A stretch of 52,604 nt of DNA from an uncultured Eubacteriales bacterium (GTDB lineage Bacteria > Bacillota_I > Bacilli_A > RF39 > UBA660): contig OMST01000064.1 in the NCBI GenBank assembly GCA_900313815.1, positions 1 through 52,604 of the forward strand, written 5' to 3'. The notes below the pieces were generated by a model. That model did not search any database and was not told where the DNA came from. It saw nothing but the letters and a program-made list of their open reading frames with translations. The stretch's first letter is position 1. Each line of letters opens with the position of its first letter. The translations under genes were made by a program, and so were the position numbers. Shown piece by piece: positions 1 through 36,756 of this stretch.

Positions 1-64
1 TCATTATTGTTATTATTGATATGCCTAGTATTATTATAAAATATGCCCAATATGATTCTTTCAT
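1..64 (-). CDS. 5' fragment (gene runs off the left edge) of a second small N-anchored membrane protein, paralog of 177..599
   Basis: Reverse strand has ATG at 62-64, then MKESYWAYFIIILGISIITIM. Nucleotides 38-64 are identical to 573-599, the start of the neighbouring 140-aa gene. Confidence 0.6.
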   Translation of the reverse strand, partial: MKESYWAYFIIILGISIITIM

Positions 65-176
65 ACTTTCACCATTCTACCTTTTTTTATACTATTTATA
101 GTATATCATATTTATTATATTTTTTACAATTAAAAAGAAAGTATTTCTACTTCCTTTTATTAATAGTATTTACTAA

Positions 177-599
177 TTATTCAGCTTTTTCTACTCCATA
201 TATTGTTTCTAATATACCATTTAAAGTAGTATCTAATTTAACATCGAAATTTTCTGATCCCACTTCAGTTACTCCACTACTTGTTCTTATTCTTACTGTT
301 GCTTTTGGCGGATCTTCATATATATCATAGAAACTTAATTCATATGTTTTATTGTTACTTACTGAATCAGCAAATCTTCTTATGAATACTTCGACAAATT
401 TTTGCTCTGACATTATTACTTTTCCTGTTGTTCTATAAGTTCCGTAATCTACTGCATCAATCATAGAAGCTTCTAAGACTTCTCTTCCTAAATAGAAGTC
501 TTCTTCTGTTGTTGTTGTTAGTCTTTGTATTAACAACATAACAAGTACTATTACTATACCTAATATAAGTAAAAAATATGCCCAATATGATTCTTTCAT
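177..599 (-). CDS. small single-pass membrane protein (N-terminal TM anchor, ~110-aa external domain), unknown function
   Basis: 140-codon ORF with a hydrophobic N-terminus (WAYFLLILGIVIVLVMLLI). It lies 13 nt downstream of the 1247-aa gene on the same strand. I recognise no family. Confidence 0.7.
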   Translation of the reverse strand: MKESYWAYFLLILGIVIVLVMLLIQRLTTTTEEDFYLGREVLEASMIDAVDYGTYRTTGKVIMSEQKFVEVFIRRFADSVSNNKTYELSFYDIYEDPPKATVRIRTSSGVTEVGSENFDVKLDTTLNGILETIYGVEKAE

Positions 600-612
600 T
601 TCTTACACCACC

Positions 613-3600
613 TTAATTACTTATTGTTTTAGATCCACTTACTTGAACACCTACTCGTTCGTAAGCAGAATTCTTTAACTCATTTAAGAATGAACTCTTA
701 CAATCACTGAATTGATATAAACCACTATCTTTATTTATAGTTAATTCACATTTAATTAATGTTGCATTTAAGTATCCACCATTATTACGCTCTTGTTCAT
801 TATATTCTTTAATCATCTTAATAGCTTCTGGTGTAAGTACATATCTATAATCTAAATACTTATCATTAGTAAATATTATATCTGCAGAAGCTTTAATATC
901 ATTTATTATATTAATATGTTGTTTTCTTTCTTCACCATATCCTACCCAGTTAGTACCTGGATCTCTAGTAGAAATACCATTTTGTTCAGATATTTCTGCA
1001 TCAGGGAATAAATCATTTAATTCAACATTTCTAAATATAAATCCATAGTTTTTACTATCTGTTTTATCCCAATTAGTACAATTATCTTTTATAACTGGAA
1101 TTCCATCTTTCATTTCAAAACATGAGTTCTTACATTTAGTTAAATCAATGCTTCCGTCTTCATTCTTATAATTACAATCATATAAAACTGTTGTATTATA
1201 AGCATCATATTTACAAGTATAATTATATGTTTTATCACGTTGGTTAGCGCGTAATTTATAACTATAATTAATATTATATGAACCAGTTGGATTATAATTA
1301 CTTACTGGATATGAGTTACTTGGAAGAGGTGTCCATGAAGTATCATTTACATCAACGCTACCATCTTTTACTTTTCCAGTATAAGCCTGAGCTTTATAAT
1401 CTTGTGCTTGATAATAATCACTTTCAGCAATCATTCTAAATGAAGCATAATCGTTAGATGGAACAGTTACGTTCCTATAATTACAACTTCCGCCTGAACA
1501 TATTAAATATTTTAATGTTTCAGTTCTATTGCTTCCACTTATTTCTGTAGGATTATTCTTATCATATTTATAACAATTATTTCCACTACAATAATAAGTT
1601 TTATTCTTATCTGCATCTTGTATTGCTACTGTTTTCTTAGCTATTTTTGGTGTTTTGCCATATTCACTATCTTCATAAGTAACAGTTAATGCAGGGCATT
1701 CATTAGTTCCTTCACATAATGGTCTGCTTAAAGCATATTCTTTTGTAGTACCATATTCTGGCATACTAATACTAGAATATGGATCAACTAAATCATTTTT
1801 ACTATAGAAATTACAGTTTTGTAATTCATATAGCCATTGTGATACTTCTTTTATAGCTGCATTATATGCATTTGTGTTTTTTGATTCATATGTTAATTTA
1901 ACAATATCCATTTTCTTGTTAAATTCTTCTTTCCATGCAGCATATTTAATTTGAGATGTACATTGTCTTTCAACAATAACAACACTTGTTAATTTTTGAT
2001 CACTTACCGTATTCTTTAGTATTCCTTTTGATTTTAAAACATTGCCTAAGTCATAACTAAATTGCATTCCAGAATATACCTTAGTTTTATTTGGCATATA
2101 GAATGTTACATCATCTTTACAATATATATTACATACTCTATCATTGATTTTATATCTAATATTATAGTTATAAGTTTCTTTTTCAGATGGATTACATGCA
2201 TTCATAATACAACTCATCTTAGGTCCTTCAATAGTTGAAACTGTATAATCAGGATCAGACGGATTATTACAATTTGCACTTAAATGTTCTATAGGTGTTA
2301 AATTATTACATTTATCATCTGGAGAACAAGGACATTCAATTCTTGTTGTAGTTTCAATATAATCTTTAGATTCTGTTCCCTCGTTTTGAGTTTCACACTT
2401 TTCTAAATTAAATGCAAATGATATCATCTTTTGATATTTTTGAGGATTTTTAGCAGCTGTATAGAATCTAATCCATCCATTGCTTCTTGACCATCCTTTT
2501 ATTGTTACTCTAATAGTTAAAACAGAACGTATTCTTCCACTTGTTATTATGTCACATAATTTAGTACCAGTTGTTTTAATTTTACATAATCGTTTATTAC
2601 AGAATCCACCAGTAACTACTAAATCAGTTACATCAACTAATTGACCACTAGAATCAGTATAGAAATATTGAACTTTAATTTTTTCACAAGTGCCATTCTT
2701 TATTTCTTCATCAGTACATTCAATTTCTAATGTTTCGAAAGTTTCAGGTAGTTCAATAATAGTTTCACCAGTTGGAATAGCATCATCTATATTAGATGCA
2801 TGATTTGAACCATATTCTGTATGAGTAATAACAGGTACTTCTTTTACAAAACTTATTCCACCTAGATAAGGATGATCAGCATCACTTCCTGCTCTTTCTG
2901 CATTATGGAATAATTCAATTGCTTTATCTATATCACATTGACCAGGTGTTTCACCTTTTCTACACACGATTAAATTTCGTTGATTGCTTAAATCGCTCTT
3001 CCATGAGGTATCATATGTTTTACCTCCAGTAATAGCTTTAGCTGTTACTTCATAGAAATTTTCTTTAGGAATCCAATCTAGTATAGAGTTTTCTGAAGAT
3101 TCTCCTAGCTTAAGTCCATATTGTGTCTTACCATAATGTGCCATCCATAATCTTAATGCAAGTGTTATAGTTGCATTATTATATTTTCCATTTGAAACAT
3201 ATGATGTTGCAGTTCCGGTTACTGTTTCTCCCCCTATTTCAGTTGTATAGGTAGCTCCAGTTGAATCAGCTGGTCTAACAGTTTGGAATAATATTTGTGC
3301 AAGACCACACTCTACACGATTTTGATCATTTTTGTTTTTAAATGGGCTAACACAGCTAGATAAATCAAAACTACTATCTAAAATATATTCAAGTCCAGCA
3401 ACTCCAGGACCAGTTGCACCTGGTTGTAAACAGTAAACTGGATCACCGGAAGATGTAACATTTCCAGTATCCAATTCATAACTATATGAATATACATCGG
3501 CAGATGAAGGCTCACATTTATCAGATATTCTATGAGCTTCTGTTTTATCATAATGCCATGTATAATAACACTCGGTCTTTTCACTGCTTGATCCTTCAGA

Positions 3601-16629: not shown

Positions 16630-18723
16630 TTAATTATTGTCAATTTTAGATAAATATTTATGATTAATAGCAATAGTTTTTACGCCTATACCATATTTAA
16701 ATGCTATAGTAGCTAAATCCCCATTAACTCTTGTAACTACTCCTTCACCAAAAATAGTATGTTTAACATTATCTCCTTGTTTGATTTCAACTGATTCATC
16801 TGTATTATACATTTCATTTAGATTAACTTTTCTTTCTATTTTTTTAGAACTTGTTTTATTTATTTCATTTAATACACTAGGATCAATTTCTTTAATAAAT
16901 CTACTTTCCATAGAAGAAGTAGTAGAACCATATAATGTTCTTCTTAAACATCCAAGTAAATATAGCTTTATTTTAGCTCTAGTAATTCCTACATAACAAA
17001 GTCTTCTTTCTTCTTCTAGTTCACTTAAGCTTTCAAAACTTCTCATATGAGGGAATATTCCTTCTTCCATGCCCACTATAAATACTACTTTAAATTCTAG
17101 TCCTTTAGCAGAATGTAATGTCATTAAATTAACACTATCTTTATCTTCCTTATATTGACCAGCATCGCTAACTAAAAGAATATTTTCTAAAAATGTTTCT
17201 AAATCATATATACCATTATCTTCAAAATTTAATGCTATACTTTTAAATTCATTTAAACTCTCTATTCTAGATTCACCTTCTAAAGAACTATCTTTTTCAT
17301 ATTCTTCTCTTATACCAGTCTTTACCAAAACATCTTCTATGAAATCACTTAATCCCAAATTCTTAACATCTTCTTGCAACTCTAATATTAAGTTTTTAAA
17401 AGCTAGTTCTTTCCCTTCTTCTATAGCATCAAACATACTAACATTATTCATTAATGCTTTTTGTCTAATGCCATCTATTGTTTTAGTGCCTATACCTCTT
17501 TTAGGAGTATTAATAACTCTTTCTAAACTTACTGAATCATTTTTGTTATATACTAAATTCAAATAAGCTATTAAATCTTTTATTTCTTTTCTAGCATAGA
17601 AATAATAACTACCAATAATATTATATGGAATATTTTCTCTAACAAAATTTTCTTCTAAAATTCTACTTTGAGCATTAGTTCTGTAAAGAACTGCAAAATC
17701 ACTATAATTGTATCCAAGACTTACTAAATCTTTTATTTTATTAATTACAAATTCTGTTTCTTTGATTTCATCTTCTACTCTTATATAGTCAACTTTTTCT
17801 CCATCACCAACATCTGTCCACAGATTTAATGCTTTTCCTTCAGTATTATTTTTAATAACAGAATTTGCTGCTTTTAAAATATTATTAGTGCTTCTATAGT
17901 TTTCTTCCAATAATATAACAGTTGCATTTTCATAATCTCTTTCGAAATTTAATATATTTTTATAGTCAGCATTTCTCCATGAATAAATAGATTGTGAAGC
18001 ATCCCCTACTACAAAGATATTATTATACCTTTTAGATAATAACTTGCATAATTCATATTGAATACCATTAGTATCTTGATATTCATCTACTAATATATAT
18101 TTAAATCTTTCCTGATATTTAGATAAAACATCTTTATTTTTCTTGAACAATTCAACTGGTTTTAATAATAAATCATCAAAGTCAACAGAATTATTTTCTT
18201 TTAAAATTTTTAAATATTTTTCATATACAAATGATATTACTTTATCATCTTCTCTTAAAAACAATTTAGAAAATTCAGTTGGAGTTATGCCATCGTTTTT
18301 AGCAGAACTTATTCTGTTCATTATATATTTAATATCATAACTTTGAATATCATATCCATTATCTTTTAATATTCTTTTTATTAATGCTTTAACATCATCT
18401 GTATCTAAAATAGTAATATTAGATGTATATCCAATATCTTTATAGTTTTCTCTTAATACTCTAAGTCCAAAAGAATGGAAAGTTCCAATAAAAATGGAAT
18501 CTGCTACAGAACCCATTTCGTTTTCTATTCTACTCCTCATTTCTTTAGCAGCTTTATTAGTAAATGTTATAGCTAATATATTATAAGGACTTACTCCATC
18601 ATCAATTAATCTAATTATTCTTTGAGTTAATACACGTGTTTTACCAGAACCTGCTCCTGCCAAAACAAGACATGGACCATCTCCATGGTTAACTGCTTCT
18701 TTTTGTTTATCATTTAATGTCAT
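16630..18723 (-). CDS. pcrA: ATP-dependent DNA helicase PcrA (UvrD/Rep superfamily 1)
   Basis: SF1 motifs: AGAGSGKTRVLT (I), VDEYQDTN (II), VGDASQSIYSWRNA (III), EENYRST (IV), TLHSAKGLEF (V), RRLCYVGITRAK (VI). Confidence 0.95.
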   Translation of the reverse strand: MTLNDKQKEAVNHGDGPCLVLAGAGSGKTRVLTQRIIRLIDDGVSPYNILAITFTNKAAKEMRSRIENEMGSVADSIFIGTFHSFGLRVLRENYKDIGYTSNITILDTDDVKALIKRILKDNGYDIQSYDIKYIMNRISSAKNDGITPTEFSKLFLREDDKVISFVYEKYLKILKENNSVDFDDLLLKPVELFKKNKDVLSKYQERFKYILVDEYQDTNGIQYELCKLLSKRYNNIFVVGDASQSIYSWRNADYKNILNFERDYENATVILLEENYRSTNNILKAANSVIKNNTEGKALNLWTDVGDGEKVDYIRVEDEIKETEFVINKIKDLVSLGYNYSDFAVLYRTNAQSRILEENFVRENIPYNIIGSYYFYARKEIKDLIAYLNLVYNKNDSVSLERVINTPKRGIGTKTIDGIRQKALMNNVSMFDAIEEGKELAFKNLILELQEDVKNLGLSDFIEDVLVKTGIREEYEKDSSLEGESRIESLNEFKSIALNFEDNGIYDLETFLENILLVSDAGQYKEDKDSVNLMTLHSAKGLEFKVVFIVGMEEGIFPHMRSFESLSELEEERRLCYVGITRAKIKLYLLGCLRRTLYGSTTSSMESRFIKEIDPSVLNEINKTSSKKIERKVNLNEMYNTDESVEIKQGDNVKHTIFGEGVVTRVNGDLATIAFKYGIGVKTIAINHKYLSKIDNN

Positions 18724-25634: not shown

Positions 25635-26702
25635 TTATTTCTTTAATACCTCTATATCTTCTTTATCAAATGTTATATATACATCTTGACCATCTTTAAA
25701 ATCATTAATATCACTAATAGTAGATTTTAATGTATATTGATCATCTATATTAATATATAATTTAGTATTATATCCACTATAAGTAGAATCTATTATTTTT
25801 CCATGTATAGAATTTTTAACTTCTTTTATTTGTGGAAATACATCTTCGGGTCTAATAATTATTTTAACTAAGTCATTTTTATTAAATGATTTATTGGTTT
25901 TAATACTTATTTCTTTATTATTCATAAAAGATAATGTTAATATGTTATCTTTAATATTAACAACTTCAGCATCTAATATATTAGCTTCACCTATAAAATC
26001 TGCTACAAATACAGATTTAGGATGAGAATATACTTCTTGAGGAGTGCCTAATTGTTCTATTACACCTTGATTCATAATAGCAATTCTATCACTCATACTT
26101 AATGCTTCATCTTGAGCATGAGTTACATATATAAATGTTATCCCCAGTTCTTTTTGTATTCTTTTAAGTTCAACTTGCATATTCTTTTTAAGTTTTAAAT
26201 CAAGAGAACATAATGATTCATCTAATAATAATACTTTAGGATTCATAACAACCCCACGAGCTATAGCAACTCTTTGTTGTTGACCACCAGATAGTTCATG
26301 TGGATATCTATTTTCAAAACCTTTTAATTTAACTAAATCTATTACTTTTTTAACTCTTTGTTCTATTTCAGGTTTTGGTACCTTTTTCATTTGTAAACCA
26401 AAACTAATATTTTCAAAAACAGTCATTTTAGGAAATAAAGCAAAATTCTGAAAAATTGTATTTACTTCTCTTTTAGTAGCATCAACATTAGTAACATCTT
26501 TATTAGCAATAAACACCTTTCCAGTAGTAGCATCTTCTAGTCCAGATATTATCTTTAATACTGTTGTTTTTCCACATCCAGAAGCACCCAATAAAGTAAT
26601 AAACTCACCTTCATAAATATCCAGTGAAAAGTCCTTAATAACTGTTGTATCATCAAACTTTTTAGTAACATTTGATAATTTTACAATAACATTCTTTTCC
26701 AT
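25635..26702 (-). CDS. potA: spermidine/putrescine ABC transporter ATP-binding protein
   Basis: Walker A GASGCGKTT, signature LSGGQQQRVAIAR, Walker B LLLDE, C-terminal TOBE-like extension. Confidence 0.85.
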   Translation of the reverse strand: MEKNVIVKLSNVTKKFDDTTVIKDFSLDIYEGEFITLLGASGCGKTTVLKIISGLEDATTGKVFIANKDVTNVDATKREVNTIFQNFALFPKMTVFENISFGLQMKKVPKPEIEQRVKKVIDLVKLKGFENRYPHELSGGQQQRVAIARGVVMNPKVLLLDESLCSLDLKLKKNMQVELKRIQKELGITFIYVTHAQDEALSMSDRIAIMNQGVIEQLGTPQEVYSHPKSVFVADFIGEANILDAEVVNIKDNILTLSFMNNKEISIKTNKSFNKNDLVKIIIRPEDVFPQIKEVKNSIHGKIIDSTYSGYNTKLYINIDDQYTLKSTISDINDFKDGQDVYITFDKEDIEVLKK

Positions 26703-26799
26703 ATTACCTCTATTCTAATATCATTATACAAATATTATTTAACAATTACAATAAAATCACCTTTAAATATTTAATGAATATAATATTATGAGGTGAAAT

Positions 26800-27771
26800 A
26801 TGAAAAGAATAATTTGTATTATTATTGCTTTATTAATTGTTTGTACATTTTTTATAGTTTTTAGAAAAGATAATGAAAATAAAAAAATTACAGTGGCAGA
26901 AGTTACTCATTCAGTTTTTTATACGCCATGGTATGTAGCATTGGAAAATGGTTATTTTAAATCATCTGGTTTAGATATAGAAGTAATATTGACTCCAGGT
27001 GCTGATAAAGTAGCATCTTCAGTATTATCAGGAGATGCTCAAATTGGTTTTTCAGGTCCAGAAGCAACTGTATATGTCTATAATAATTCTACTGAGAAAC
27101 TTATTTCTTTTGCATCTTTAACTAAAAGAGATGGTCAATTTATAGTTGGGCCTTGTAAATTAAAAGATAAATTTAAAATGACAAATTTGATTAATAAAAC
27201 CGTTTTAGCAGGAAGAAGTGGTGGTATGCCATTACTAATGTTTAAATATGCATTAAAAGAGTCTAATATAGATGAAAAATTAGTTAATATTGATACATCA
27301 GTAGATTTTTCATCGCTAAGTGGAGCATTTATAGGTAAGCAAGGAGAATTTGTTAATTTATTTGAACCTACTGCTAATAAAATAGAAAAAGAAAAATATG
27401 GATGCGTATTATCGTCACTTGGAAAAATATCTGGTGTTGTTCCATACACAACTTTCTATGCTAAAGAAAAATTCATAAGTGAAAATGCTGATATAATTAA
27501 AAAGTTTAATCAAGCATTAAATAAAGGAATTAGATTTGTAAAAGAAAATGACGAGATAACTATAGCTAATTCAATAAAAAATCAATTTAATGATCTAGAA
27601 TTTGATGATTTAGTTACTGTTATAAAAAGATATAAAGATGCTGATTCATGGTATAACAGCACATATATTAATATAGATGATTATAATAGATTATTAGATA
27701 TCATGATGTATGGTAAAGTAATTGATGAGAAAGTAGATATTAATTTATTAGTTACAAATGAATACAACTAG
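26800..27771 (+). CDS. NMT1/THI5-like ABC substrate-binding protein (NitT/TauT family, SsuA/ThiY-like)
   Basis: 323 aa with an N-terminal anchor. First gene of a binding protein-ATPase-permease operon. Substrate unknown. Confidence 0.6.
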   Translation: MKRIICIIIALLIVCTFFIVFRKDNENKKITVAEVTHSVFYTPWYVALENGYFKSSGLDIEVILTPGADKVASSVLSGDAQIGFSGPEATVYVYNNSTEKLISFASLTKRDGQFIVGPCKLKDKFKMTNLINKTVLAGRSGGMPLLMFKYALKESNIDEKLVNIDTSVDFSSLSGAFIGKQGEFVNLFEPTANKIEKEKYGCVLSSLGKISGVVPYTTFYAKEKFISENADIIKKFNQALNKGIRFVKENDEITIANSIKNQFNDLEFDDLVTVIKRYKDADSWYNSTYINIDDYNRLLDIMMYGKVIDEKVDINLLVTNEYN

Positions 27772-28183
27772 TATTTTAAATGTAATCAATTTATCTAAAA
27801 CTTATCATAATGTTCCTGGAGAAACGATTGCTATAAAAGATATTAGTTTTAATATTAATAAAGAAGAATTTGTAGGCATAGTTGGGCCTTCTGGATGTGG
27901 CAAAAGCTCTATACTAAATATTATTAGTTCATTAGATAAAGATTATAAGGGAAAACTAGAGATTAATAAAAATATTAAGATAGCTTATATGTTTCAAGAA
28001 GATACTTTATTTCCATGGCTAACTATCTTAGATAACGTATTAATAGGTTTAAAGATTAAAAAAGAATTAACAAAAGATAACAAGATGTATGCTATAGAAT
28101 TATTAAAAAAATATGGTTTATATGATTTTATTAACAAATATCCAAGTGAACTTTCGGGTGGTATGAAACAAAGAGTTGCTTGA
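27758..28183 (+). pseudogene. 5' part of an interrupted NitT/TauT-family ABC ATPase gene
   Basis: Walker A GPSGCGKS, Q-loop, signature LSGGMKQRVA, then an immediate TGA at 28181-28183. There is no Walker B or H-loop. The missing half is at 35040..35381. Confidence 0.9.
28169..28181. repeat. attL core (13-bp direct repeat caaagagttgctt)
   Basis: Identical 13-mer at 35040-35052. It lies exactly where the ABC ATPase reading frame breaks. Confidence 0.85.
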
Positions 28184-28195
28184 ATTCTTTAAAGA

Positions 28196-28219
28196 CACAA
28201 AAAAAGCACTAAGTGCTTT
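28196..28219 (-). terminator. rho-independent terminator after the 797-aa gene
   Basis: agcac (28205-28209), loop taa, gtgct (28213-28217), flanked by A and T runs. Confidence 0.65.
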
Positions 28220-30613
28220 TTATTCTAAATGGGTTGTTTGATATGTAGTTCCACTTATAGTCTCTGTACCATCTACTCTTGTACTATTATCTTCTATTTC
28301 TGTAATTGTTCCGTTAATAGAAGCAGTTACACCTCTGATGGTTCCGTCATAGAACTTAAATATATTTGTATTATTAAGACCATATACCGCTCCAGTTATT
28401 GATGGAGAAGATGCATCAATATTACCATCCTTTACTCCCACTATTAATGTGGAAGTATTATTTACGCCATTTTGTCCGGTAGATTTAATTGTTCCACCTG
28501 TTATAGTCATAGTAGCTTCATTTAATACGGCTGGGAAAGATGCGGAAGGTGATGTGATTGTTCCCCCACTAATAGTTGTTATACCTTTATGATTTTGAAC
28601 ACTAGCTCTAGTTGGAGTAGCACCATTTCCACATGTTAAATATGGATTACCAGTTATAGTTAATGTACCACCATCATTATAAATGGCTTGTCTCTTTGTA
28701 GCAATTACTTCTCCTCCTGAGATTACCATAGTTGCATTATTTTCATTATTAATTAAACCTTGGTCTACCCCAGCGGCTGCCCAAATCTTTCCACCAGTAA
28801 TTGTTAGGTTTCCATAATTACGAATTACTTGGTATATATTTGATTTAATGTCGCCTCCCGAAATAATAAGACGTCCAGATCTTTCATTTTGAATAACTCT
28901 ATTTTGGTCATTAGCTCCATTACGTAATAGTATTCCATTTTTAATTTCAAGAGTACCTGAATTATCAAATAAATTACCAGAAGTACTACTAATAGAATAA
29001 TTTCCTATATCTAACTCTATGTTCTTACCAGATGCTACCACTATATTTTCATCAACTATATTATCTAATATTGTGATAGTGACTTTTACATTATCAGTGG
29101 CAACAGCATCAACTGCATCTTGAAGGAGTTCATATTTTGTGCCATTTATATCAGCAACATAATGATGATAAACTTCCCAGTGTGCAAATATTTCATCATC
29201 AGTATTAAATACAGTGCTTGCAGTTATTTCTGTTCCATTTTCTGGATCTGTGAACCATCCAATACAGTTAAACCCTATTCTTGTTGGAGTTGGCAATGTA
29301 CCTATAGTATTTCCTGGAGATATTTCTCTATATGGTTCATCAACACTTCCGCCATTGGCATTAAATGTAATGGTAATCTTTTGGCCTAATGAAATCTTTT
29401 TATATGTGCCGTCCCTAGCATGAAGTATTTCAGTACCAGTTTCAATATCATCAATTAAAGTTTCATCATTTACTGCATCAATTTTTCCTTCAATAATACC
29501 GTCATAAAATAAAAAATTAGATGTTGTATTTACTCCATAGGTATCACCTTTAATTAATGGAGAACTATTACTAGCATTTCCATCTTTAATGCCAATAGTT
29601 AATGTTCCTAGGTTATCTATTGCATGATAGCCAGTTGATAAAACCGTTCCTCCGGTAATATTAATAGTACCAGTTGCTAAGTTTTGAAGTGGCGCTCTTT
29701 CAGTAGTTACTGCACTCAAATATGCACTTCCACTAATATTTACTGTTCCCGCATTATATATAGCTTGTCTAGTACCTGTTGCAACTATTTTTCCTCCAGT
29801 AATATTAAGAGTTGCATTATTGTTAATAGCACCTTGAGTAGTATCAGAAGTGATAATACCATTATAAATATTCAGTACTCCATCATTGGTTATTACAGGA
29901 TTCTTTCCACTATTACTTAAAGTAAAGTTTTGAAGATTAAGTTTAACATTTTGATGTGCTACTATAGTTATTATTTCACTAGTATTATCAAGTAACATTA
30001 CTGTTGTTTGAGTATCATTCTTAGGCACAGCTTGAACAGCTGCTTTTAAAGTTGTATATCTAGTATTTCCAATTTTAGCAATATAATTTACTCTTTCAAA
30101 TATAAAATTCATACTTAATGCATAATTAGTATTACTACTATCATATTCACCAGATTTATAACCTATGGTTATTAATATTTCATCAGTTGCACCATAATTA
30201 CACTCATCATTTGTATTACAAAGAGGATCTCCCAAATTATAATTAGACATACTATACTCTAATTTGCTATCAAGCCCAGTGATATTAGATATTTTCATTT
30301 CTGTAGCGGAAAAAACAGTAGCATCTACTTTATATGTTACTGTTGAATCAGCACTTGGAAGATTAATAGAACTAAATATACTACTAACATTATATTCTTC
30401 GTTACTACTAGTCCCACCACTAGAAGTGCTATCTAATAACATTCCAGTAATTGTAGCATTTCCTCTAGGTTTTACACTAACCAATAGATTTTCTATACTA
30501 GTGTTAATAGTTGAATTGGCATACGCCAAAGAAAGTAATAATGAGCTAATTATTACAAAAGCTATTATTACTTTAATATACCTTTCAATATTATTTTGTA
30601 CTATCTTTTTCAT
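28220..30613 (-). CDS. large exported surface protein: TasA-like N-terminal module, duplicated beta-helix-like ITGG repeats, one Listeria-Bacteroides repeat
   Basis: N-terminal anchor/signal ending …SLAYANSTINTS resembles the 213-aa protein's signal. Two homologous ~230-300-aa blocks are rich in (I/L)(T/S)GG(K/T)I turns. Central ITFNANGGSV…GFNCIGWFTDPENGTEI matches the Flg_new/List_Bact repeat. Confidence 0.8.
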   Translation of the reverse strand: MKKIVQNNIERYIKVIIAFVIISSLLLSLAYANSTINTSIENLLVSVKPRGNATITGMLLDSTSSGGTSSNEEYNVSSIFSSINLPSADSTVTYKVDATVFSATEMKISNITGLDSKLEYSMSNYNLGDPLCNTNDECNYGATDEILITIGYKSGEYDSSNTNYALSMNFIFERVNYIAKIGNTRYTTLKAAVQAVPKNDTQTTVMLLDNTSEIITIVAHQNVKLNLQNFTLSNSGKNPVITNDGVLNIYNGIITSDTTQGAINNNATLNITGGKIVATGTRQAIYNAGTVNISGSAYLSAVTTERAPLQNLATGTINITGGTVLSTGYHAIDNLGTLTIGIKDGNASNSSPLIKGDTYGVNTTSNFLFYDGIIEGKIDAVNDETLIDDIETGTEILHARDGTYKKISLGQKITITFNANGGSVDEPYREISPGNTIGTLPTPTRIGFNCIGWFTDPENGTEITASTVFNTDDEIFAHWEVYHHYVADINGTKYELLQDAVDAVATDNVKVTITILDNIVDENIVVASGKNIELDIGNYSISSTSGNLFDNSGTLEIKNGILLRNGANDQNRVIQNERSGRLIISGGDIKSNIYQVIRNYGNLTITGGKIWAAAGVDQGLINNENNATMVISGGEVIATKRQAIYNDGGTLTITGNPYLTCGNGATPTRASVQNHKGITTISGGTITSPSASFPAVLNEATMTITGGTIKSTGQNGVNNTSTLIVGVKDGNIDASSPSITGAVYGLNNTNIFKFYDGTIRGVTASINGTITEIEDNSTRVDGTETISGTTYQTTHLE

Positions 30614-31775
30614 TTAATGTCTCACCATTAAAATCAGATGCTTTAATTACATATACATATATATTAATATCATTTATTACAAAGAATTCGCATTTTTGAT
30701 GAGGAGTTATAATATAATAATTTATAGGTTGGCTAACATTATCTCTAACATCAATTAATTCTTCAAACTTTTCCACTTCAATAACATTATATCCACTAAT
30801 ATCCGGTTTATTTTTAATATTAATTATTAATCTATCATATCCTCTTAATAATCTATTTACATATCTATCATATTTACTTTTACCGGTATTTGTTAAAGAT
30901 AATTTTTGTGCTAATAATATAATTGACACTATTACTAAAGTAAATAATATTCCACTAATAATTGCATATTGCTTATTTTTAACTATAATAGCTGAATTAC
31001 TAATTAATTGTTTTTCAATGTTAACATTTTTATTATCAAAACTTATGTTAATTTCTTGTTCAGATAATGGAATAATTAAAGTTGCTTTATTATTATTTAA
31101 AAGGCTATATGTATTTTCCTTTTTACTCCTTTCATTAACATAAAGAGTAACTTCTAGTCTACTAGATGTATTTACTGCATAATGGGACTTAAAATCATTA
31201 GCAAGTTGATTATAATAATCGTAATCAATTACTATATCTTTTTTATTTATCGAATAACCAAATGTATTATCTATATCTTCACTAATCTCTTCTGTTAAAT
31301 CATATTCTTTTTCAAAAAATACATTTGAATTACTTTGACTAGCAATTATTAATTTTGCTTTTACTACATATGAAACATATAAATTGCTTTCTTTATCAGC
31401 ATTAAATTTATATTCATAATTAATATGTATTTTATCTATTAAACTTGCTACATATGCCATACCTTTTCCAAGGTAATCTTCTTCATAAAAACTATTATCT
31501 TTTAAATATATCTTATAATCTATATCACTATTTTCAGTATAATTAATATATTGTCTTTTTGTTATAGAAAACGACATAATTGAAAAATATACAAGAGCAT
31601 ATATAAGAACAGCAATTAACATAATATTTAGAATTACTCTCATACTAAAACTATAATAAAACTTATTTTTAGTTGGCTTATCAAAAACATTTTCAGTAGT
31701 TACTTTTTTTTCTTCATCACTTTTTGTAGCACTTGTTTTCTTAACCGCTTTAGTTGTTTCTTTTTTCTTTTCCAT
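30591..31775 (-). CDS. two-TM membrane protein with a large external domain (DUF5305-like accessory protein?)
   Basis: 394 aa: Lys-rich N-terminus, TM (ILNIMLIAVLIYALVYFSIM), ~220-aa loop, second TM (AIISGILFTLVIVSIILLA), C-terminal domain. Family assignment is from memory only. Confidence 0.6.
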   Translation of the reverse strand: MEKKKETTKAVKKTSATKSDEEKKVTTENVFDKPTKNKFYYSFSMRVILNIMLIAVLIYALVYFSIMSFSITKRQYINYTENSDIDYKIYLKDNSFYEEDYLGKGMAYVASLIDKIHINYEYKFNADKESNLYVSYVVKAKLIIASQSNSNVFFEKEYDLTEEISEDIDNTFGYSINKKDIVIDYDYYNQLANDFKSHYAVNTSSRLEVTLYVNERSKKENTYSLLNNNKATLIIPLSEQEINISFDNKNVNIEKQLISNSAIIVKNKQYAIISGILFTLVIVSIILLAQKLSLTNTGKSKYDRYVNRLLRGYDRLIINIKNKPDISGYNVIEVEKFEELIDVRDNVSQPINYYIITPHQKCEFFVINDINIYVYVIKASDFNGETLNEKDSTK

Positions 31776-31784
31776 AAGTCCTCC

Positions 31785-32909
31785 TTATTTTTCATTAAAC
31801 CATACTGTTGGATATCCTATATAACGTATTCTTTGTTTAACGTTTCCAACAATCATGTCTTCTTTTATAACAAAGTCATCCATATTATTATTAGCATCCC
31901 CTTTTGTATATAATAAATATGAATCACCAAAGCTAACTTTTTTAGCTATTCTGTGTATTATAATTACACCTTCTTTTCTATATGCGATAATATCCCCTAC
32001 TTCTAAATTATTAAAAGAATATTTTTTATCTACAATAACAACGTCACCTTTGTTTATATTTGGACTCATACTACCAGTAGCAACTGCGATAGTATAAAAT
32101 CTAAAATATCCACTATAAAAATAAACTAATGTAAACACTAATATGGCCGGTACTATTGCGTGTTTAAGCTTAATAGCATGATAGTTACTTGATATTTTAT
32201 CATTCTTTTTAGCTTCATAAAATCTTAATATTTTAAATGCAAATAAAATTGGTACTATTAAATATATAATAGACATAACATATTCATTTATATTTGGCAC
32301 TATAGGCAAAATATATAAATATAATGAGAAAATTAAATCAAAAATTATTAGTGGCTTATATCCAATTCTTTTTGATATATATGAATAAGAAATGTTCTTT
32401 GATACAGCAGGTAAAAATGCAAGAGCAATAAACTTAAGAACATCATATTGCGAATTAAATAATGTGAAATAAAATGCATTTGAAATGTCTAATATAATAA
32501 ATAATATAATAACTATTATAGTGCAAAGCATATTATTGTCTGCTTTAGAAATCATATTATATCTAAGTATTTCTCTTAAAATACAATATAATATAATTGG
32601 AATTAGAATACCAGTTATATAAGGCATAGTTAAATAATTAGACGTCCAAGCTAATCCTACTACTAACCCTAATAAATAATATACTATAAAATATGTTAAT
32701 GAAAATAATAGTATTTCAAACAAAATATCTCGATAATATAATCTTCTATTTCTTTCCATTACAAATATTTGATTAAATACAACTAGAACTATTAATAAAA
32801 ATATAACTATCTTATATCCAGAAAATATATTTACGACAAAAGCATTAAATAAACTAAGGATAATTAATAATAGTGAAAAAATTAATAATCTTATATACCC
32901 CTTTTTCAT
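31785..32909 (-). CDS. SipW/ER-type (S26B) signal peptidase I fused to an N-terminal polytopic membrane domain
   Basis: C-terminal ATGSMSPNINKGDVV (Ser), IIIHRIAKK (His), TKGDANNNMDD, preceded by ~270 aa with about eight hydrophobic helices. GGAGG 6 nt upstream supports the ATG at 32909 rather than 32936. Confidence 0.8.
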   Translation of the reverse strand: MKKGYIRLLIFSLLLIILSLFNAFVVNIFSGYKIVIFLLIVLVVFNQIFVMERNRRLYYRDILFEILLFSLTYFIVYYLLGLVVGLAWTSNYLTMPYITGILIPIILYCILREILRYNMISKADNNMLCTIIVIILFIILDISNAFYFTLFNSQYDVLKFIALAFLPAVSKNISYSYISKRIGYKPLIIFDLIFSLYLYILPIVPNINEYVMSIIYLIVPILFAFKILRFYEAKKNDKISSNYHAIKLKHAIVPAILVFTLVYFYSGYFRFYTIAVATGSMSPNINKGDVVIVDKKYSFNNLEVGDIIAYRKEGVIIIHRIAKKVSFGDSYLLYTKGDANNNMDDFVIKEDMIVGNVKQRIRYIGYPTVWFNEK

Positions 32910-32978
32910 TCTATACCTCCATAAATATATAATCAAATATAGTTTAAGGCTTAAAATAGCCTTAAACTATAATATTGA

Positions 32979-33620
32979 TTAATCTGCAGAACCATAAGTC
33001 AATACTATATTAGGTAATGCTACAGTAAAGTTTCCATCAGCAACTGCACTTCCAGCGTCATAAGAAATAACTACTACAATCTCTTCAGCAGTATTTTTAG
33101 CTAATGTATGTGAAGAAATGGTTGCAACTGATGTTGTAGTTACAGCTTCATTGCCTACTTTAACGCTTAATGATATTCCATTACAAGCGCTATCAACAAG
33201 TGATTGAGTTGTTCCTGTTGCAGCAGTACATGTCTTATTTCCAGAGAAAATAATACTGTTTAAATAAGCAAGATACTCTCCAGCATTATATGCATAAAAA
33301 GTATATGTTGCTGATTGCCCTGGAGCTGTAAATGTTGCTTTCAAATTTGAGATTACAGGATCATTAGCGTTATCTATAGTAGCATTTGTTGCTGAAAATC
33401 CATTAACTACTGCACTCAATGTTGGTGTAATAGGATCAGTAGCAACTGCAGAAGAACTAGACGAAAAGTCAACATTAAATGTTGATGTATCAGGATGAAC
33501 CTCTGCTTGAGATGTAATAGTTAAAGTATTTGAGAATGCAGCATAACCAATTGTAACTCCAATAGCTCCTAATATTAAAGCAACTAAAGCAATAATCTTA
33601 TAAGTTTTACCGTCGTTCAT
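32979..33620 (-). CDS. TasA/BsaA-like exported protein with a SipW-type signal peptide
   Basis: N-terminal KIIALVALILGAIGVTIGYAAFSNTLTITSQ matches the G-x-(Y/W)-A-x-F-(S/D) cognate signal of SipW substrates. Ser/Thr/Ala-rich beta-type body. Adjacent to the SipW-like gene. Confidence 0.7.
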   Translation of the reverse strand: MNDGKTYKIIALVALILGAIGVTIGYAAFSNTLTITSQAEVHPDTSTFNVDFSSSSSAVATDPITPTLSAVVNGFSATNATIDNANDPVISNLKATFTAPGQSATYTFYAYNAGEYLAYLNSIIFSGNKTCTAATGTTQSLVDSACNGISLSVKVGNEAVTTTSVATISSHTLAKNTAEEIVVVISYDAGSAVADGNFTVALPNIVLTYGSAD

Positions 33621-33855
33621 TTTGTCACCTCCTACAAAAAGAATTGAATAAAATATCCTAGCTAGTGTATTTTATCAATATACATTATATCATTTTTTAT
33701 TAGTCATGTATATAAAATAATTCTATATATTTTTTTTACTAATATAATATTTTAAGGAGATAATATGGAATATATTTTAATACATAATAGGTTAAATAAT
33801 AAAAATATAAAACAGGTTATTAATACAAAAATATATAACATTATTAAACTAAACA

Positions 33856-35055
33856 ATGAACAAGATATTTAAAGTTGGAATATATTTAAGATTATCTAAC
33901 GAAGACAAAGATAAAAAGAATATTGATAGTGAATCAATAAAAAATCAAAGAAATATGTTAATAGATTATATAAATAAAAATGATAATTATATTCTTTATG
34001 ATGAATATTGTGATGAAGATCTTTCAGGAGCAGGAACGTATAGGCCTGAATTTGAACGTTTAATAAATGACTGTCGAAATAAGAAAATAGATATAGTACT
34101 TTGCAAAAGCCAATCTAGATTTTCAAGAGATATGGAAATAATAGAAAAATATATAAACAATAAATTTATAGAATGGAATGTTAGATTCATAAGTATTGCT
34201 GATAATGCTGATACAGATAACTATGGTAACAAAAAAGCAAGACAAATAAATGCTCTTGTTAACGAATGGTATTTAGAAGATATTTCAAATAATATAAGAA
34301 CTGCATTCAATTCTAAAATGAAGCAAGGTGAATTTATATCACCATTTGCTCCATTTGGTTATAAAGTATCAAAACAAAACAATAATAAGCTCGTTATAGA
34401 TAAAACTGCATCTATAATTGTTGAAGAAATATATAAATTATATTTAGATGGTTATGGTTTTACTTCTATTGCAAATATCTTAAATAATAAAAGAGTCCCT
34501 TCCCCTTCGCTATATAAGCATATGAATGGTATTAAGCTACATATAGTAACCAATAAAAAAATTGAAGATATAAAATGGAATAATAATGCTATTAAAAATA
34601 TATTAACAAACGAAATATATATAGGAAATCTAATTCAAGGAAAGAGAACTACTGTTAGTTATAAAAATCATAAGATTATTAAAAAAGATAAAAGTTTATG
34701 GATAAAAAAAGAAAATACTCAAGAACCTATAATAGATGGATATACTTTTAATAAAGTGCAAAAGCTAATTAAAAGAAGAACAAGAACTATTAAATCAACA
34801 AATAAAACACATATATTATCTGGAATTGTCTTTTGTAATAATAATCATTTAATGACAATTAAAAACTCTGGAAAACATTTATATTTAGTTTGTAAAAAAT
34901 GTAAAACCTCTATAAGGTATGATTATTTAGAGCAAGAAATACTAAATAAATTAAATAATAAATATACTACATTAACAAGATCAATAATAGATGATCTAGT
35001 CTTAAAAATAATAATTAATAAAGATGTACTTATAACATTCAAAGAGTTGCTTTAA
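33856..35055 (+). CDS. large serine recombinase (integrase of the island)
   Basis: Resolvase-type N-terminus VGIYLRLSNEDKD (Ser nucleophile), a recombinase domain, and a C-terminal Cys pairs region (C…CKKC). Its last five codons plus stop (35041-35055) overlap the attR core and end 3 bp beyond it. Confidence 0.9.
   Translation: MNKIFKVGIYLRLSNEDKDKKNIDSESIKNQRNMLIDYINKNDNYILYDEYCDEDLSGAGTYRPEFERLINDCRNKKIDIVLCKSQSRFSRDMEIIEKYINNKFIEWNVRFISIADNADTDNYGNKKARQINALVNEWYLEDISNNIRTAFNSKMKQGEFISPFAPFGYKVSKQNNNKLVIDKTASIIVEEIYKLYLDGYGFTSIANILNNKRVPSPSLYKHMNGIKLHIVTNKKIEDIKWNNNAIKNILTNEIYIGNLIQGKRTTVSYKNHKIIKKDKSLWIKKENTQEPIIDGYTFNKVQKLIKRRTRTIKSTNKTHILSGIVFCNNNHLMTIKNSGKHLYLVCKKCKTSIRYDYLEQEILNKLNNKYTTLTRSIIDDLVLKIIINKDVLITFKELL
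35040..35052. repeat. attR core (13-bp direct repeat caaagagttgctt)
   Basis: Identical to 28169-28181. Confidence 0.85.
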
Positions 35056-35381
35056 TCAGAACACTTGCTATAAAACCAGATATATTATTATTAGATGAAC
35101 CATTTTCAGCATTAGATTATCAAACCAGATTAAAAGTATCAGATGATGTCTATAAAATAATTAAAGAAGAGAAAAAATCTGTCATAATAGTTACTCACGA
35201 TATATCTGAAGCTGTATCGATGTGTGATAAAATTATTGTCCTATCAAATAGACCATCAACAATTAAGAATATATATAATATTCATCTAGATAATAAATCA
35301 ACTCCGTTGAAGAATAGAGAATCTTCTAATTTTTCAGATTATTATAAAAATATATGGAAGGATATAGAACATAATGTCTAA
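35040..35381 (+). pseudogene. 3' part of the interrupted ABC ATPase gene
   Basis: Reading from 35040 gives QRVALIRTLAIKPDILLLDEPFSALD (Walker B, D-loop) …VTHDISEA (H-loop). The stop at 35379-35381 overlaps the permease ATG at 35374. There is no start codon of its own. Confidence 0.9.
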
Positions 35382-36150
35382 AGAACAATTAATTTTCTTA
35401 AGAAAAAATAAAATATATAAAGTATCTATTTTATTAACTCAAATATTATTATTTCTAATATTTATATTCTTATGGCAATATCTATCTGATAATAATACTA
35501 TTAATTCTTTTATTATGAGTAATCCATTTAAAATAATTAATACTTTAAAACAATTATATATTAATAATAATCTATTTAATCATATATTTATCACATTAAA
35601 AGAATGTATTATATCTTTTATATTAACTAATATTATTTCTTTCATAGTAGCAATTATAATGTTAGATAATAAATTCATAGCTAAAGTTTTAGAACCATAT
35701 TTAATAGCATTAAATTCACTTCCTAAAGTAGCATTGGGTCCTATAATAATTATATGGATTGGAGCAAATCAAAAAGGAATTATTACAATGGCACTATTAA
35801 TATCATTAATTGTTAGTATACAAAACTTATATAATGCATTTGTATCAACAGATAAATTAAAAATTAAATTGTTAAAAACCTTTAATGCTTCTAAAATAGA
35901 TATATTATTGAATGTAATAATACCATATAATAAAGATAACATTTATAATACATTAAAAATAAACTTATCAATGTGTCTTATTGGTGTTATCATGGGAGAA
36001 TTTTTAACATCTAAAGCTGGTATTGGATATTTAATACTTTATGGTTCTCAAGTATTTAATTTGAGCATAGTTATGAGTGGAATATTTATATTAACTATTA
36101 TTTCTATATTTTTATATTTAATAATTAATATAATAAAAAAAGTCTTTTAG
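35374..36150 (+). CDS. NitT/TauT-family ABC transporter permease (SsuC/ThiX-like)
   Basis: 258 aa, 6-TM binding-protein-dependent permease. Translationally coupled to the 3' ATPase fragment. Confidence 0.75.
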   Translation: MSKEQLIFLRKNKIYKVSILLTQILLFLIFIFLWQYLSDNNTINSFIMSNPFKIINTLKQLYINNNLFNHIFITLKECIISFILTNIISFIVAIIMLDNKFIAKVLEPYLIALNSLPKVALGPIIIIWIGANQKGIITMALLISLIVSIQNLYNAFVSTDKLKIKLLKTFNASKIDILLNVIIPYNKDNIYNTLKINLSMCLIGVIMGEFLTSKAGIGYLILYGSQVFNLSIVMSGIFILTIISIFLYLIINIIKKVF

Positions 36151-36157
36151 ACTTTTT
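36136..36157. terminator. bidirectional hairpin terminator between convergent genes
   Basis: aaaaagtc / gacttttt stem around a tttta loop. Confidence 0.6.
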
Positions 36158-36756
36158 TATATGTTTCCATGTTCATTTTGTATTTCTGACATTCTTTTTC
36201 TCATAGATAATACTTTACCAAATTTATAAACATCATAAATAATAATTATTAATACTGGAACAGCTAGTAATCCTAACCAAGCAAGTTTAGAAGATAATAC
36301 TGATTGCATATTTCCTACTTTAGGAACTACTAATATAACTTTACCAATAATATTAGGTTGCACTACTGTTTCGGTAATATCATTTTCAGAATTACCTTTT
36401 ACATCTATAGTATTATCATCATTTACTTTTATAACTCTATTAGTCAATATACTAAATCCATCAAATATATTTAATGAATAATAAGTAATAATATCATCTT
36501 TTTTTAAATTTTTAACACTTGTTTTTAATGTTAATACAACATCATATGCTTTTATTTGAGGTTCCATTGTTTCATTGGTTACAGTATATAAGCCTACTAA
36601 TGGTGCATTATTCTTTTTATCTGATAATGCAGCATTTATATATAAGAAAACCAAACCAAAAATAATAATAATTAAGAAAACAATTATTATCCACAAGATA
36701 CTCTTAGATATAGTTCTAAGAAGTTTTTTTCTTTTTATTGTTTTATCTTCTTCCAT
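36157..36756 (-). CDS. SipW-like (S26B) signal-peptidase homolog with substituted catalytic positions
   Basis: N- and C-terminal TMs. It aligns to the island peptidase: NETMEPQIKAYDVV vs TGSMSPNINKGDVV, TNRVIKV vs IHRIAKK, KGNSENDITE vs KGDANNNMDD. Confidence 0.6.
   Translation of the reverse strand: MEEDKTIKRKKLLRTISKSILWIIIVFLIIIIFGLVFLYINAALSDKKNNAPLVGLYTVTNETMEPQIKAYDVVLTLKTSVKNLKKDDIITYYSLNIFDGFSILTNRVIKVNDDNTIDVKGNSENDITETVVQPNIIGKVILVVPKVGNMQSVLSSKLAWLGLLAVPVLIIIIYDVYKFGKVLSMRKRMSEIQNEHGNI

Follow-up and report, generated by a model that had tools for sequence, protein, structure and literature searches.

The stretch of DNA analysed here, 52,604 nucleotides of contig OMST01000064.1 (assembly GCA_900313815.1) from an uncultured Eubacteriales bacterium (GTDB lineage Bacteria; Bacillota_I; Bacilli_A; RF39; UBA660), is referred to below as the window. 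It carries a 6.9-kb island with a large serine recombinase and a cargo of four co-oriented genes on the minus strand, and we lean towards reading this cargo as an operon that makes a surface fibre of the TasA superfamily, held together by donor-strand complementation and organized most like the AbpX-type loci. The open reading frames (ORFs), as listed, encode proteins of 213, 383, 394 and 797 amino acids (aa): a putative major fibre subunit, a signal peptidase, a DUF5305 protein and a large adhesin-like protein (Table 1). From the gene content, the class and catalytic motifs of the peptidase, the motif shared by the two exported proteins, the conserved linkage and mobility of the genes, and the preferential transcription of the subunit gene, we infer fibre formation, together with the cleavage site, the polymerization of the subunit and the position that the 797-aa protein takes in such a fibre. 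A preliminary description of this DNA had proposed a self-contained, mobile SipW/TasA-type fibre module built around a dedicated peptidase. Its four co-oriented genes agree in their coordinates with the ORF list, and the self-contained module is supported by a SipW/archaeal-type peptidase accompanied by two cognate-looking substrates; overall, that interpretation was partly supported, being right in kind with the family mislabelled. What is new is an AbpX/TasA-like, peptidase-dependent module built on an unannotated subunit family and a modular adhesin, which uncultured Bacilli of the gut carry on serine-recombinase islands.

The second gene of the cargo encodes a signal peptidase I (SPase I) that matches the archaeal-type NCBIfam model TIGR02228 at 77.8 bits (cut-off 51.85) as well as Pfam Peptidase_S26/S24, and reaches 59 bits, far below the cut-off of 190, with the SipW equivalog model NF046067. 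Its catalytic motifs contain a serine in GSMSP, a histidine in IHR and an aspartate in GDAN..DD (predicted catalytic Ser289, His328 and Asp347 in the numbering of the 383-aa ORF); across 10 peptidase orthologues, the His and GD motifs do not vary, and in one of these the Ser motif reads SDSMFP. N-terminal to the catalytic domain, hydropathy indicates about nine transmembrane (TM) helices, which the preliminary description had overlooked, and this polytopic domain is conserved across the 10 orthologues. Residues 1-260 have conserved motifs of their own, including E(K/R)xxxR(Y/H), NY, ExxRY, LPxxS and PNPNEYxxS, which suggest a role of the domain beyond anchoring; a Pfam scan of the domain returned a sub-threshold match to DUF7027 and nothing else. 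The listed ORF opens at a TTG codon (32936), nine codons 5' of an ATG (32909), and because all ten orthologues begin with MKKGY, the ATG is probably the true start, giving a protein of 374 rather than 383 aa. Judged by its sequence, the peptidase is SipW-like in mode, that is, a dedicated enzyme of the Ser-His type, and is not an orthologue of SipW. Thus, the earlier label of a SipW-type peptidase stands for the archaeal/SipW class and falls for the SipW family itself, given the low equivalog score and the many TM helices.

The product of the third gene, described previously as a two-TM accessory protein, proved to be a member of DUF5305 (Pfam PF17231; 36.1 bits, cut-off 29), with TM helices at residues 48-66 and 271-289, an extracytoplasmic part between them and a cytoplasmic C-terminal domain. 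Its gene adjoins the peptidase gene in every complete related locus, and an accessory role of DUF5305 proteins to SPase I has been proposed (PMC11821415; bioRxiv 10.64898/2026.01.04.697558).

The 213-aa protein and the 797-aa protein, the two predicted substrates, each represent a family (the 213 family and the 797 family hereafter), and both families carry the common motif h-region-[LIV][ST][LIV]G[YF][AS]↓[AS]FS.TL.I...A.V.P, in which the h-region is the hydrophobic part of the signal, the arrow marks the predicted cut, and +1 is the first residue after it. Among 185 members of the 213 family, the positions before the cut are G at -3 (98%), Y or F at -2 (99%) and A at -1 (94%), and those after it are A at +1 (95%), F at +2 (91%), S at +3 (89%), L at +6 (96%) and I at +8 (96%), with A at +12 (93%), V at +14 (96%) and P at +16 (91%) further along. 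The consensus of 118 members of the 797 family is L-[ST]-[IV]-G/A-[YFW]-[SA]↓[SA]-F-S-x-T-x-x-I-E-x-I-x-A-x-V-R-P. In the window, the 213-aa protein reads ...GVTIGYA↓AFSNTLTITSQAEV, so that the GYAAFSNT signal noticed earlier is indeed present and is near-invariant in its family; the 797-aa protein has SLAYA↓NSTINTSIENLLVSVKP (SLAYANST), a degenerate form of the consensus with one residue missing, and the resemblance previously seen between the two N-termini is borne out at the family level. With small residues at -3 and -1, the motif is compatible with cleavage by SPase I, and the predicted sites would be A27↓A28 in the 213-aa protein and A32↓N33 in the 797-aa protein. A scan of 15 loci for the motif with a preceding hydrophobic stretch, in ORFs of at least 70 aa, recovered the two substrate families and one false positive only.

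Profile-profile comparison (hhalign) aligns the two families with a probability of 96% and an E-value of 1e-9 when the signal is included, and with an E-value of 1.7e-3 from the mature N-terminus, which makes a common signal and N-terminal strand (N-strand) a solid result at the level of sequence profiles. For the bodies alone, profile-profile comparison gave an E-value of 0.13, with no detectable homology, and a direct BLASTP comparison of the two window proteins gave an E-value of 2.7, with no similarity. The previous claim that the 797-aa protein opens with ~150 residues that look like the body of the 213-aa protein is therefore not upheld in sequence. In structure predictions, both appear as beta-sandwiches behind a disordered, conserved N-strand and match the same generic structures, and it is for that reason plausible, rather than demonstrated, that the body of the 213-aa protein and the N-domain of the 797-aa protein have a common fold. 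The N-strand makes no intramolecular contacts in the AlphaFold2 (AF2) monomers of either substrate. Its near-invariance (91-96% at each of positions +6, +8, +12, +14 and +16), together with its lack of structure in the monomer, argues for a strand that is donated to a neighbouring subunit; monomer models of the Clostridium perfringens protein BsaA behave alike, with residues 28-38 disordered in the monomer and inserted in multimer models (PMC11580942).

The 213-aa protein has 407 homologues in a 90% clustered database, and a search without a word index yielded 1054 representative clusters (clustered at 50% identity) at E < 1e-3. All named relatives are hypothetical proteins, from metagenome-assembled genomes of uncultured 'Bacilli', 'Erysipelotrichaceae', 'Tenericutes' and 'Mycoplasma sp.' of goat, rumen, chicken and human gut. 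The protein has no match among Pfam or NCBIfam models or PDB sequences, and a profile of 63 family sequences likewise found nothing meaningful in the PDB. The mature form is acidic (isoelectric point 4.15; 14 Asp and Glu in 186 residues, 7.5%) and has one conserved cysteine pair, C131/C146. The AF2 model, based on an alignment of 79 sequences, has a mean predicted local distance difference test (pLDDT) score of 88.5, exceeding 93 in the body, and consists of a signal helix (4-21), an unstructured segment (23-44) and a confident beta-sandwich (45-211). The top probabilities in a Foldseek search of the PDB with this model belong to the Pyrobaculum bundling pilus 7ueg (0.96; TM-score 0.41), the Sulfolobus thread 7pnb (0.95; TM-score 0.41) and the TasA fibre 8aur (0.85; TM-score 0.31-0.33), all with E-values of at least 0.026; FimG, FimA and Pap pilins are also among the matches. 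These resemblances of the model to donor-strand pilin folds are suggestive only.

Many members of the 213 family (P0246-P0348) are longer, 300-650 aa, and combine the N-terminal subunit module with varied C-terminal domains, among which DUF285 is clear in P0255 (85 bits) and the Lcl_C-like and DUF6273-like matches are weak. In one related contig, L011 (411-1984), the peptidase gene is preceded by two tandem subunit genes, for proteins of 236 and 216 aa, and three others (L013-L015) contain isolated subunit-like genes that have no peptidase gene in the surrounding 10 kb; thus, genomes may hold several substrates per peptidase.

In organization, no known system comes closer than the AbpX-type loci of the TasA superfamily, which are a better comparator than the TasA operon proper. 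According to bioRxiv 10.64898/2026.01.04.697558, such loci, found in archaea and Bacillota, encode a tip protein and minor subunits besides a DUF5305 protein and a TIGR02228 SPase I with ten TM helices. The window module resembles them in its dedicated many-TM TIGR02228 peptidase; in its DUF5305 protein with an extracellular beta-sandwich, two TM helices and a cytoplasmic domain; in a subunit of ~160-190 mature residues with an acidic isoelectric point; and in a co-encoded large protein with a subunit-like N-terminus. This common locus grammar (a TIGR02228 peptidase with about nine TM helices, DUF5305, a small subunit and a large protein), which is also the arrangement reported for the haloarchaeal Tat-fimbriae (Tafi), is one of the grounds for reading the cargo as a fibre operon. 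Another is the predicted mature N-terminus, which resembles the donor strands of AbpX and TasA. The AbpX precursor of Pyrodictium abyssi reads ...AIGLTYA↓QWSETLSLSATIS, and residues W2-I12 form the donor strand in the electron cryo-microscopy structure (bioRxiv 10.64898/2026.01.04.697558); both proteins thus have an amphipathic N-strand with an aromatic residue at +2 (YA↓QWSETLSLS in AbpX, YA↓AFSNTLTIT in the window). An N-terminal strand that directly follows a predicted SPase I site and has an aromatic residue at +2 is a trait of the TasA superfamily, which comprises TasA, AbpX, AbpA, threads, Tafi and CanA, and the 213 family has it. The donor strand of TasA is formed by residues 28-38, at the N-terminus of the mature protein, and the N-terminus of TapA is similar (PMC9674648).

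In profile comparisons, the 213 family aligns weakly, though over its full length, with AbpX (E-value 5e-4, 160 columns), with the PG..tF...N.G hairpin and a conserved cysteine paired; the AbpX profile is thin, as a homologue search returned only 5 close relatives. AbpX and TasA align with each other with an E-value of 8.5e-5, and the 213 family aligns with TasA with an E-value of 0.068, over 24 columns that cover the PG..F..N.G hairpin only. The AbpX profile match, the donor-strand folds among the Foldseek matches and the signal and N-strand common to the two substrates all speak for a fibre. The module also differs from AbpX loci in several respects. AbpX contains ~15% Asp and Glu, twice the proportion in the window subunit; SLH or LPXTG anchors, sortases and cyclic di-GMP regulators are lacking near the window module; and the host here is an uncultured, low-GC, ruminant-gut Bacilli lineage in which the module rides on serine-recombinase islands.

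The 797-aa protein combines its N-terminal module with a long passenger. The preliminary description had recognized two copies of a repeat block and one Listeria-Bacteroides repeat, and both are confirmed: blocks 176-412 and 476-797 are homologous to each other (BLASTP E-value 7e-35), and a Flg_new repeat separates them at residues 414-471 (Pfam, 44 bits). In the blocks, which have a repeat period of ~22 residues, an L.I.GG turn recurs at intervals of ~21-26 residues, and T, I, N and G are abundant, a period and composition compatible with a solenoid or beta-helix; Pfam searches with both blocks, at E-values up to 10, found no beta-helix or other match. Neither an LPXTG motif nor a C-terminal TM helix was found in the protein, and a PDB sequence search with it returned nothing meaningful. 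In the AF2 model of residues 1-182 (44 sequences; pLDDT 84), a helix (6-37) and a disordered segment (38-48) precede a beta-sandwich (53-174), and several generic sandwich structures appear in the Foldseek lists of both this N-domain and the 213-aa protein.

The 797 family (357 matches) is much more divergent than the 213 family. On what is apparently one contig (the longest listed for both proteins, 173,694 bp), the identity to the window copies is 73% for the subunit and 44% for the large protein, and in L009 and L010 the 797-type passenger is wholly replaced. This divergence, the swapping of the passenger and the varied C-terminal domains of the long members of the 213 family argue for an adhesin role of the large protein. 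Some relatives of the large protein (P0222, P0130 and P0216) have no N-terminal sandwich, and their signal runs straight into a Flg_new repeat; in P0222, a camelysin-like IYAYFTD replaces GYSAFS, and this protein does not match TIGR04088 either.

The four genes are adjacent in 10 other contigs of gut Bacilli that offer enough context (L001-L005, L007-L010 and L016), and L017, which is cut by the contig end, shows the same arrangement. In most of these loci, the order is subunit, peptidase, DUF5305 and large protein, and in L004 and L005 the large protein precedes the subunit, peptidase and DUF5305. At least five genomic contexts are represented, including sites flanked by RNase R and cdaA or by thymidylate kinase and an amidase, a site beside scpAB, and recombinase islands. 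As the linkage is kept in 10 contigs, in two gene orders and in differing contexts, the association of the four genes is beyond chance.

In two independent metatranscriptomes, from sheep gut and cattle, the only real contigs over the 10-kb region fall in the 213-aa gene: one run has contigs at 32988-33190 and 33335-33632, and the other has one at 33308-33458. This preferential transcription is consistent with a main structural subunit that is produced in excess. The hairpin in the gap between the subunit and peptidase genes may act as an attenuator that would keep the subunit transcript in excess, in line with RNA contigs that cover the 213-aa gene only; this gap is not kept in all orthologous loci. 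The retained linkage, the conservation of the subunit set against the divergence of the large protein, and the subunit-only RNA contigs combined with the hairpin likewise count in favour of a fibre.

Under the fibre reading, the 213-aa and 797-aa proteins would be exported by Sec, and the multi-TM Ser-His peptidase, together with the DUF5305 protein, would cut the 213-aa protein after GYA27, exposing the amphipathic strand A-F-S-N-T-L-T-I-T-S-Q-A-E-V-H-P. By inserting into the sandwich of the subunit that follows, this N-strand would build up a head-to-tail polymer without a chaperone. The 797-aa protein, which has the same class of signal and N-strand, a predicted sandwich and a variable solenoid/Flg_new passenger, would be matured by the same peptidase and may be incorporated by way of its N-terminal module, serving as an adhesin that tips or decorates the fibre. 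That role is drawn by analogy with the donor-strand-like N-terminus of TapA and with the tip proteins of AbpX and Tafi systems.

Several better-known systems share parts of this design. The tapA-sipW-tasA operon of Bacillus subtilis encodes a dedicated ER/archaeal-type peptidase (ER, endoplasmic reticulum) together with its substrates; TasA is cleaved in a comparable context of an aromatic residue followed by A↓A-F (TWA↓AFND), with residues 28-38 as the donor strand; and a second substrate, TapA, has a donor-strand-like N-terminus and nucleates the fibre. SipW differs from the window peptidase in having two TM helices and in lacking a DUF5305 partner, and TapA is small and lacks a solenoid/Flg_new adhesin part. 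The sipW-bsaA-bsaB-bsaC operon of C. perfringens combines SipW, TasA-like subunits and the large adhesin-like BsaC, with a vWA domain (PMC11580942), and BsaA has a 27-residue signal, as does the window subunit, whereas the latter has no match to TIGR04090. The BsaA polymers and oligomers are membrane-associated and lack LPXTG (PMC11580942). BsaC differs from the 797-aa protein in that its secretion needs type IV pilus genes and it does not share the signal of the subunit (PMC11580942). In the Tafi of haloarchaea and in related archaeal clusters, DUF5305 (TafG) is paired with a signal peptidase (PMC11821415). The Tafi system (TafA/C/E, the peptidase TafD and TafG) resembles the module in this pair and in having several proteins, including a large one, with a subunit-like N-terminal region, and donor-strand assembly in the order tip, adapter, core and anchor has been proposed for it (PMC11821415); it differs in Tat-dependent export, archaeal hosts, a four-TM peptidase and other subunit families. 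The chaperone-usher adhesins FimH and PapG are alike in logic only, as a pilin-like plug module fused to a variable binding domain; they are Gram-negative proteins that depend on a chaperone and an usher and have a C-terminal pilin domain, and no evolutionary relationship is claimed.

A number of points weigh against a fibre of the AbpX/TasA kind. The Foldseek matches of the 213-aa model all have E-values of at least 0.013 and TM-scores of at most 0.41, below conventional significance, and those of the 797-aa N-domain are generic Ig-like (immunoglobulin-like) sandwiches only, such as adaptin and GGA ear domains. The hhalign probability of the 213 family with AbpX is only 32%, and the 797-aa N-domain has no significant similarity to AbpX or TasA. 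Position +4 is acidic in AbpX, where complementation is calcium-mediated, and is S (44%) or N (40%) in the 213 family; together with the low Asp and Glu content of the subunit, this makes calcium-dependent complementation unlikely here. The hidden Markov models (HMMs) for TasA, BsaA and the SipW signal are all negative for the substrates of the module, the RNA evidence consists of a few low-depth assembled contigs, and no cell anchor is evident for the proposed fibre. One alternative is an export-and-processing module without a fibre, in which the pair of peptidase and DUF5305 protein matures surface or secreted proteins with a common non-standard signal; the abundant small beta-sandwich and the large adhesin would then stay monomeric or form a loose coat. 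All that is shown, from the class of the peptidase and the motif of the substrates to the conserved linkage and the high transcription, suits this alternative just as well, and the structural likeness to pilins falls short of significance. We nevertheless regard it as rather unlikely, because it leaves unexplained a near-invariant 16-residue segment after the cleavage site that is free of contacts in both models, the likeness of this segment to the proven donor strand of AbpX, and the presence of unrelated passengers on the same N-terminal module. Should the signals stay uncleaved, both substrates would be membrane-tethered surface proteins whose conserved motif is juxtamembrane, and the peptidase would be a regulated sheddase or serve other substrates. 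AF2 does draw a long continuous helix through the h-region, notably helix 6-37 of the 797-aa protein, a cell-wall anchor motif is absent, and the BsaA oligomers are reportedly membrane-anchored. Such tethering seems improbable: positions -3 and -1 follow the small-residue rule in the 213 family (G and A) as well as in the 797 family (G/A and S/A), the always adjacent peptidase keeps all its catalytic motifs, and the homologous position in AbpX and TasA is a cleavage site.

The preliminary description had called the 213-aa protein TasA/BsaA-like, which in its strict form would make the protein a true TasA/camelysin or BsaA member and the locus an orthologue of tapA-sipW-tasA or sipW-bsaA. The neighbouring SipW-type peptidase, a local PG(D/Q)..F..N.G segment that aligns with TasA and the presence of 8aur among the fold matches point that way. 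When the HMM searches proposed in that description, with SipW-cognate-signal and TasA/camelysin models, were run, both substrates proved negative: the 213-aa protein matched neither Pfam PF12389 (Peptidase_M73) nor the NCBIfam models NF046066, TIGR04088, TIGR04089 and TIGR04090 at E-values up to 0.1; 63 diverse members of its family (the window protein and 62 relatives) gave no TasA, BsaA or SipW-signal match in NCBIfam at E-values up to 1; and the 797-aa protein and 5 relatives matched none of TIGR04088, TIGR04089, TIGR04090, NF046066 and PF12389. The control, a B. subtilis TasA sequence that matched NF046066 at 513.8 bits and was thereby validated, also scored 38 bits with TIGR04088 and 129 bits with Pfam Peptidase_M73. 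A suspicion that TIGR04088, a signal model of 34 positions, lacks power, P0222 with its YAYFTD-like motif being negative as well, was set aside because the TasA control matched. AbpX, a structurally proven superfamily member, is not matched by TIGR04088 either, and the negative result therefore excludes the class as modelled and not the TasA superfamily. By these models, the 213-aa protein is outside the TasA/camelysin and BsaA families and the SipW-cognate signal class; with the short hhalign alignment to TasA, the sub-cut-off SipW score and the nine or so TM helices of the peptidase also speaking against it, family membership is effectively refuted and orthology of the loci highly improbable. 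Hardly credible, finally, is a type IV pilin-like or sortase-assembled Gram-positive pilus. An N-terminal hydrophobic helix followed by a beta domain would suit it, and the 797-aa N-domain weakly matches the archaeal type IV filament 8q30; however, the hydrophobic stretch is not preceded by a prepilin motif (G↓F(T/M)L.E), the module encodes no prepilin peptidase, assembly ATPase, sortase or LPXTG protein, and the conserved motif is found where the h-region ends, as expected of SPase I substrates. Both pilus types were rejected on these motif and sequence grounds, and a donor-strand fibre remains the reading that we favour.

The proposal that the module is mobile cargo is supported. The island is bounded by a 13-bp direct repeat, CAAAGAGTTGCTT (Table 1), and the last five codons of its recombinase gene (FKELL) are encoded within the right-hand copy. 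It splits a gene for an ATP-binding cassette (ABC) ATPase: joining 27758-28180 to 35052-35381 restores a 250-aa protein that is 78% identical to the product of an uninterrupted gene in the relative L019 (3001-3756), where the same genes flank it as in the window (binding protein, ATPase, permease, 199-aa ORF and 508-aa ORF). The intact gene in the same synteny indicates that the insertion is real. The split lies between the signature motif (LSGGMKQRVA) and Walker B, and L019 has CAAAGAGTAGCATTAAT at the corresponding site; the transporter ATPase is therefore broken unless the island excises. In L016 and L017, from a strain ~88% identical, the window's island occupies the same ABC site, and in four independent ruminant DNA metagenomes (X1-X4; window positions 26500-36500), contigs span both junctions with the island at this site. 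No reported joint in these four metagenomes links the island boundaries, as excision would require, although a rare excised form is invisible in assembled contigs; the contig joints listed there have flanks of ~20 nt and were read as spurious matches in AT-rich sequence, not as excision. Thus, the island looks fixed, or stably resident, in this species.

The same module is found on a different island in L010 (8940-17260), with a 523-aa serine recombinase located downstream of the cargo and co-oriented with it. This island interrupts a ftsW/rodA-like gene at VPVTG/VSLPFISYGG, with the C-terminal remnant at ~17166-17260. The two recombinase islands that carry this cargo are unrelated, and both split host genes.

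Within the operon of the window, the start of the 797-aa gene overlaps the stop of the DUF5305 gene by 23 nt. The consensus scan for promoters found sites no commoner than in shuffled sequence, and the promoter-like site listed in Table 1 was singled out by its position 5' of the 213-aa gene.

Table 1. Features of the island, its cargo operon and the interrupted gene, in window coordinates (protein parts in residues).
Feature	Position	Strand	Basis or remark
ABC ATPase gene, N-terminal 141 codons, split by the island	27758..28183	+	ORF, HMM matches
Left 13-bp repeat copy, CAAAGAGTTGCTT	28169..28181		Read in sequence
Hairpin with T-run at operon end, intrinsic-terminator-like, 3' of 797-aa gene	28201..28221	-	Sequence
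797-aa adhesin-like protein gene	28220..30613	-	ORF, Flg_new match, internal BLASTP, shared motif
797-aa protein parts	signal (predicted cut AYA↓NST); N-strand; N-domain ~53-174; block 1 176-412; Flg_new 414-471; block 2 476-797		
DUF5305 two-TM protein gene, putative SPase I accessory subunit	30591..31775	-	Pfam PF17231
Signal peptidase I gene, archaeal/SipW (Ser-His) type	31785..32909	-	TIGR02228, Peptidase_S26/S24, conserved motifs
Hairpin, 14-bp stem, between subunit and peptidase genes	32938..32971	-	Possible attenuating terminator
213-aa putative major fibre subunit gene	32979..33620	-	ORF; family without Pfam/NCBIfam model
213-aa protein parts	27-residue signal (h-region 9-27; predicted cut GYA↓AFS); N-strand 28-43; acidic beta-sandwich body 45-211		
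Promoter-like site TATACA-17-TG-TATAAT, 5' of 213-aa gene	33684..33712	-	Consensus scan
Large serine recombinase gene, divergent from cargo operon	33856..35055	+	Pfam Resolvase and Recombinase
Right 13-bp repeat copy, CAAAGAGTTGCTT	35040..35052		Read in sequence
ABC ATPase gene, C-terminal 109 codons	35052..35381	+	Rejoined sequence

A broader version of the fibre reading, which we offer tentatively as a possibility, is that the 213 family is a new branch of chaperone-free donor-strand pili, common among uncultured, low-GC gut Bacilli, whose ~180-residue module serves as a universal handle for swapped domains (solenoid/Flg_new, DUF285, Lcl_C-like and others), the whole kit moving as a cassette on islands that split host genes. 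If the fibre reading is correct, donor-strand fibres of the TasA/AbpX type would extend to a large group of uncultured Bacilli of the ruminant, chicken and human gut without a described surface appendage, and more than 1,000 clusters of hypothetical proteins would gain a name and a testable function. It would also suggest that adhesins can be attached to fibres just by sharing the N-terminal module and the peptidase of the subunit. Being bacterial and compact, with only four genes and two clear substrates, the module lends itself to probing the pair of multi-TM peptidase and DUF5305 protein, and its presence on two unrelated recombinase islands indicates that surface structures of the colonization type are movable as a unit.

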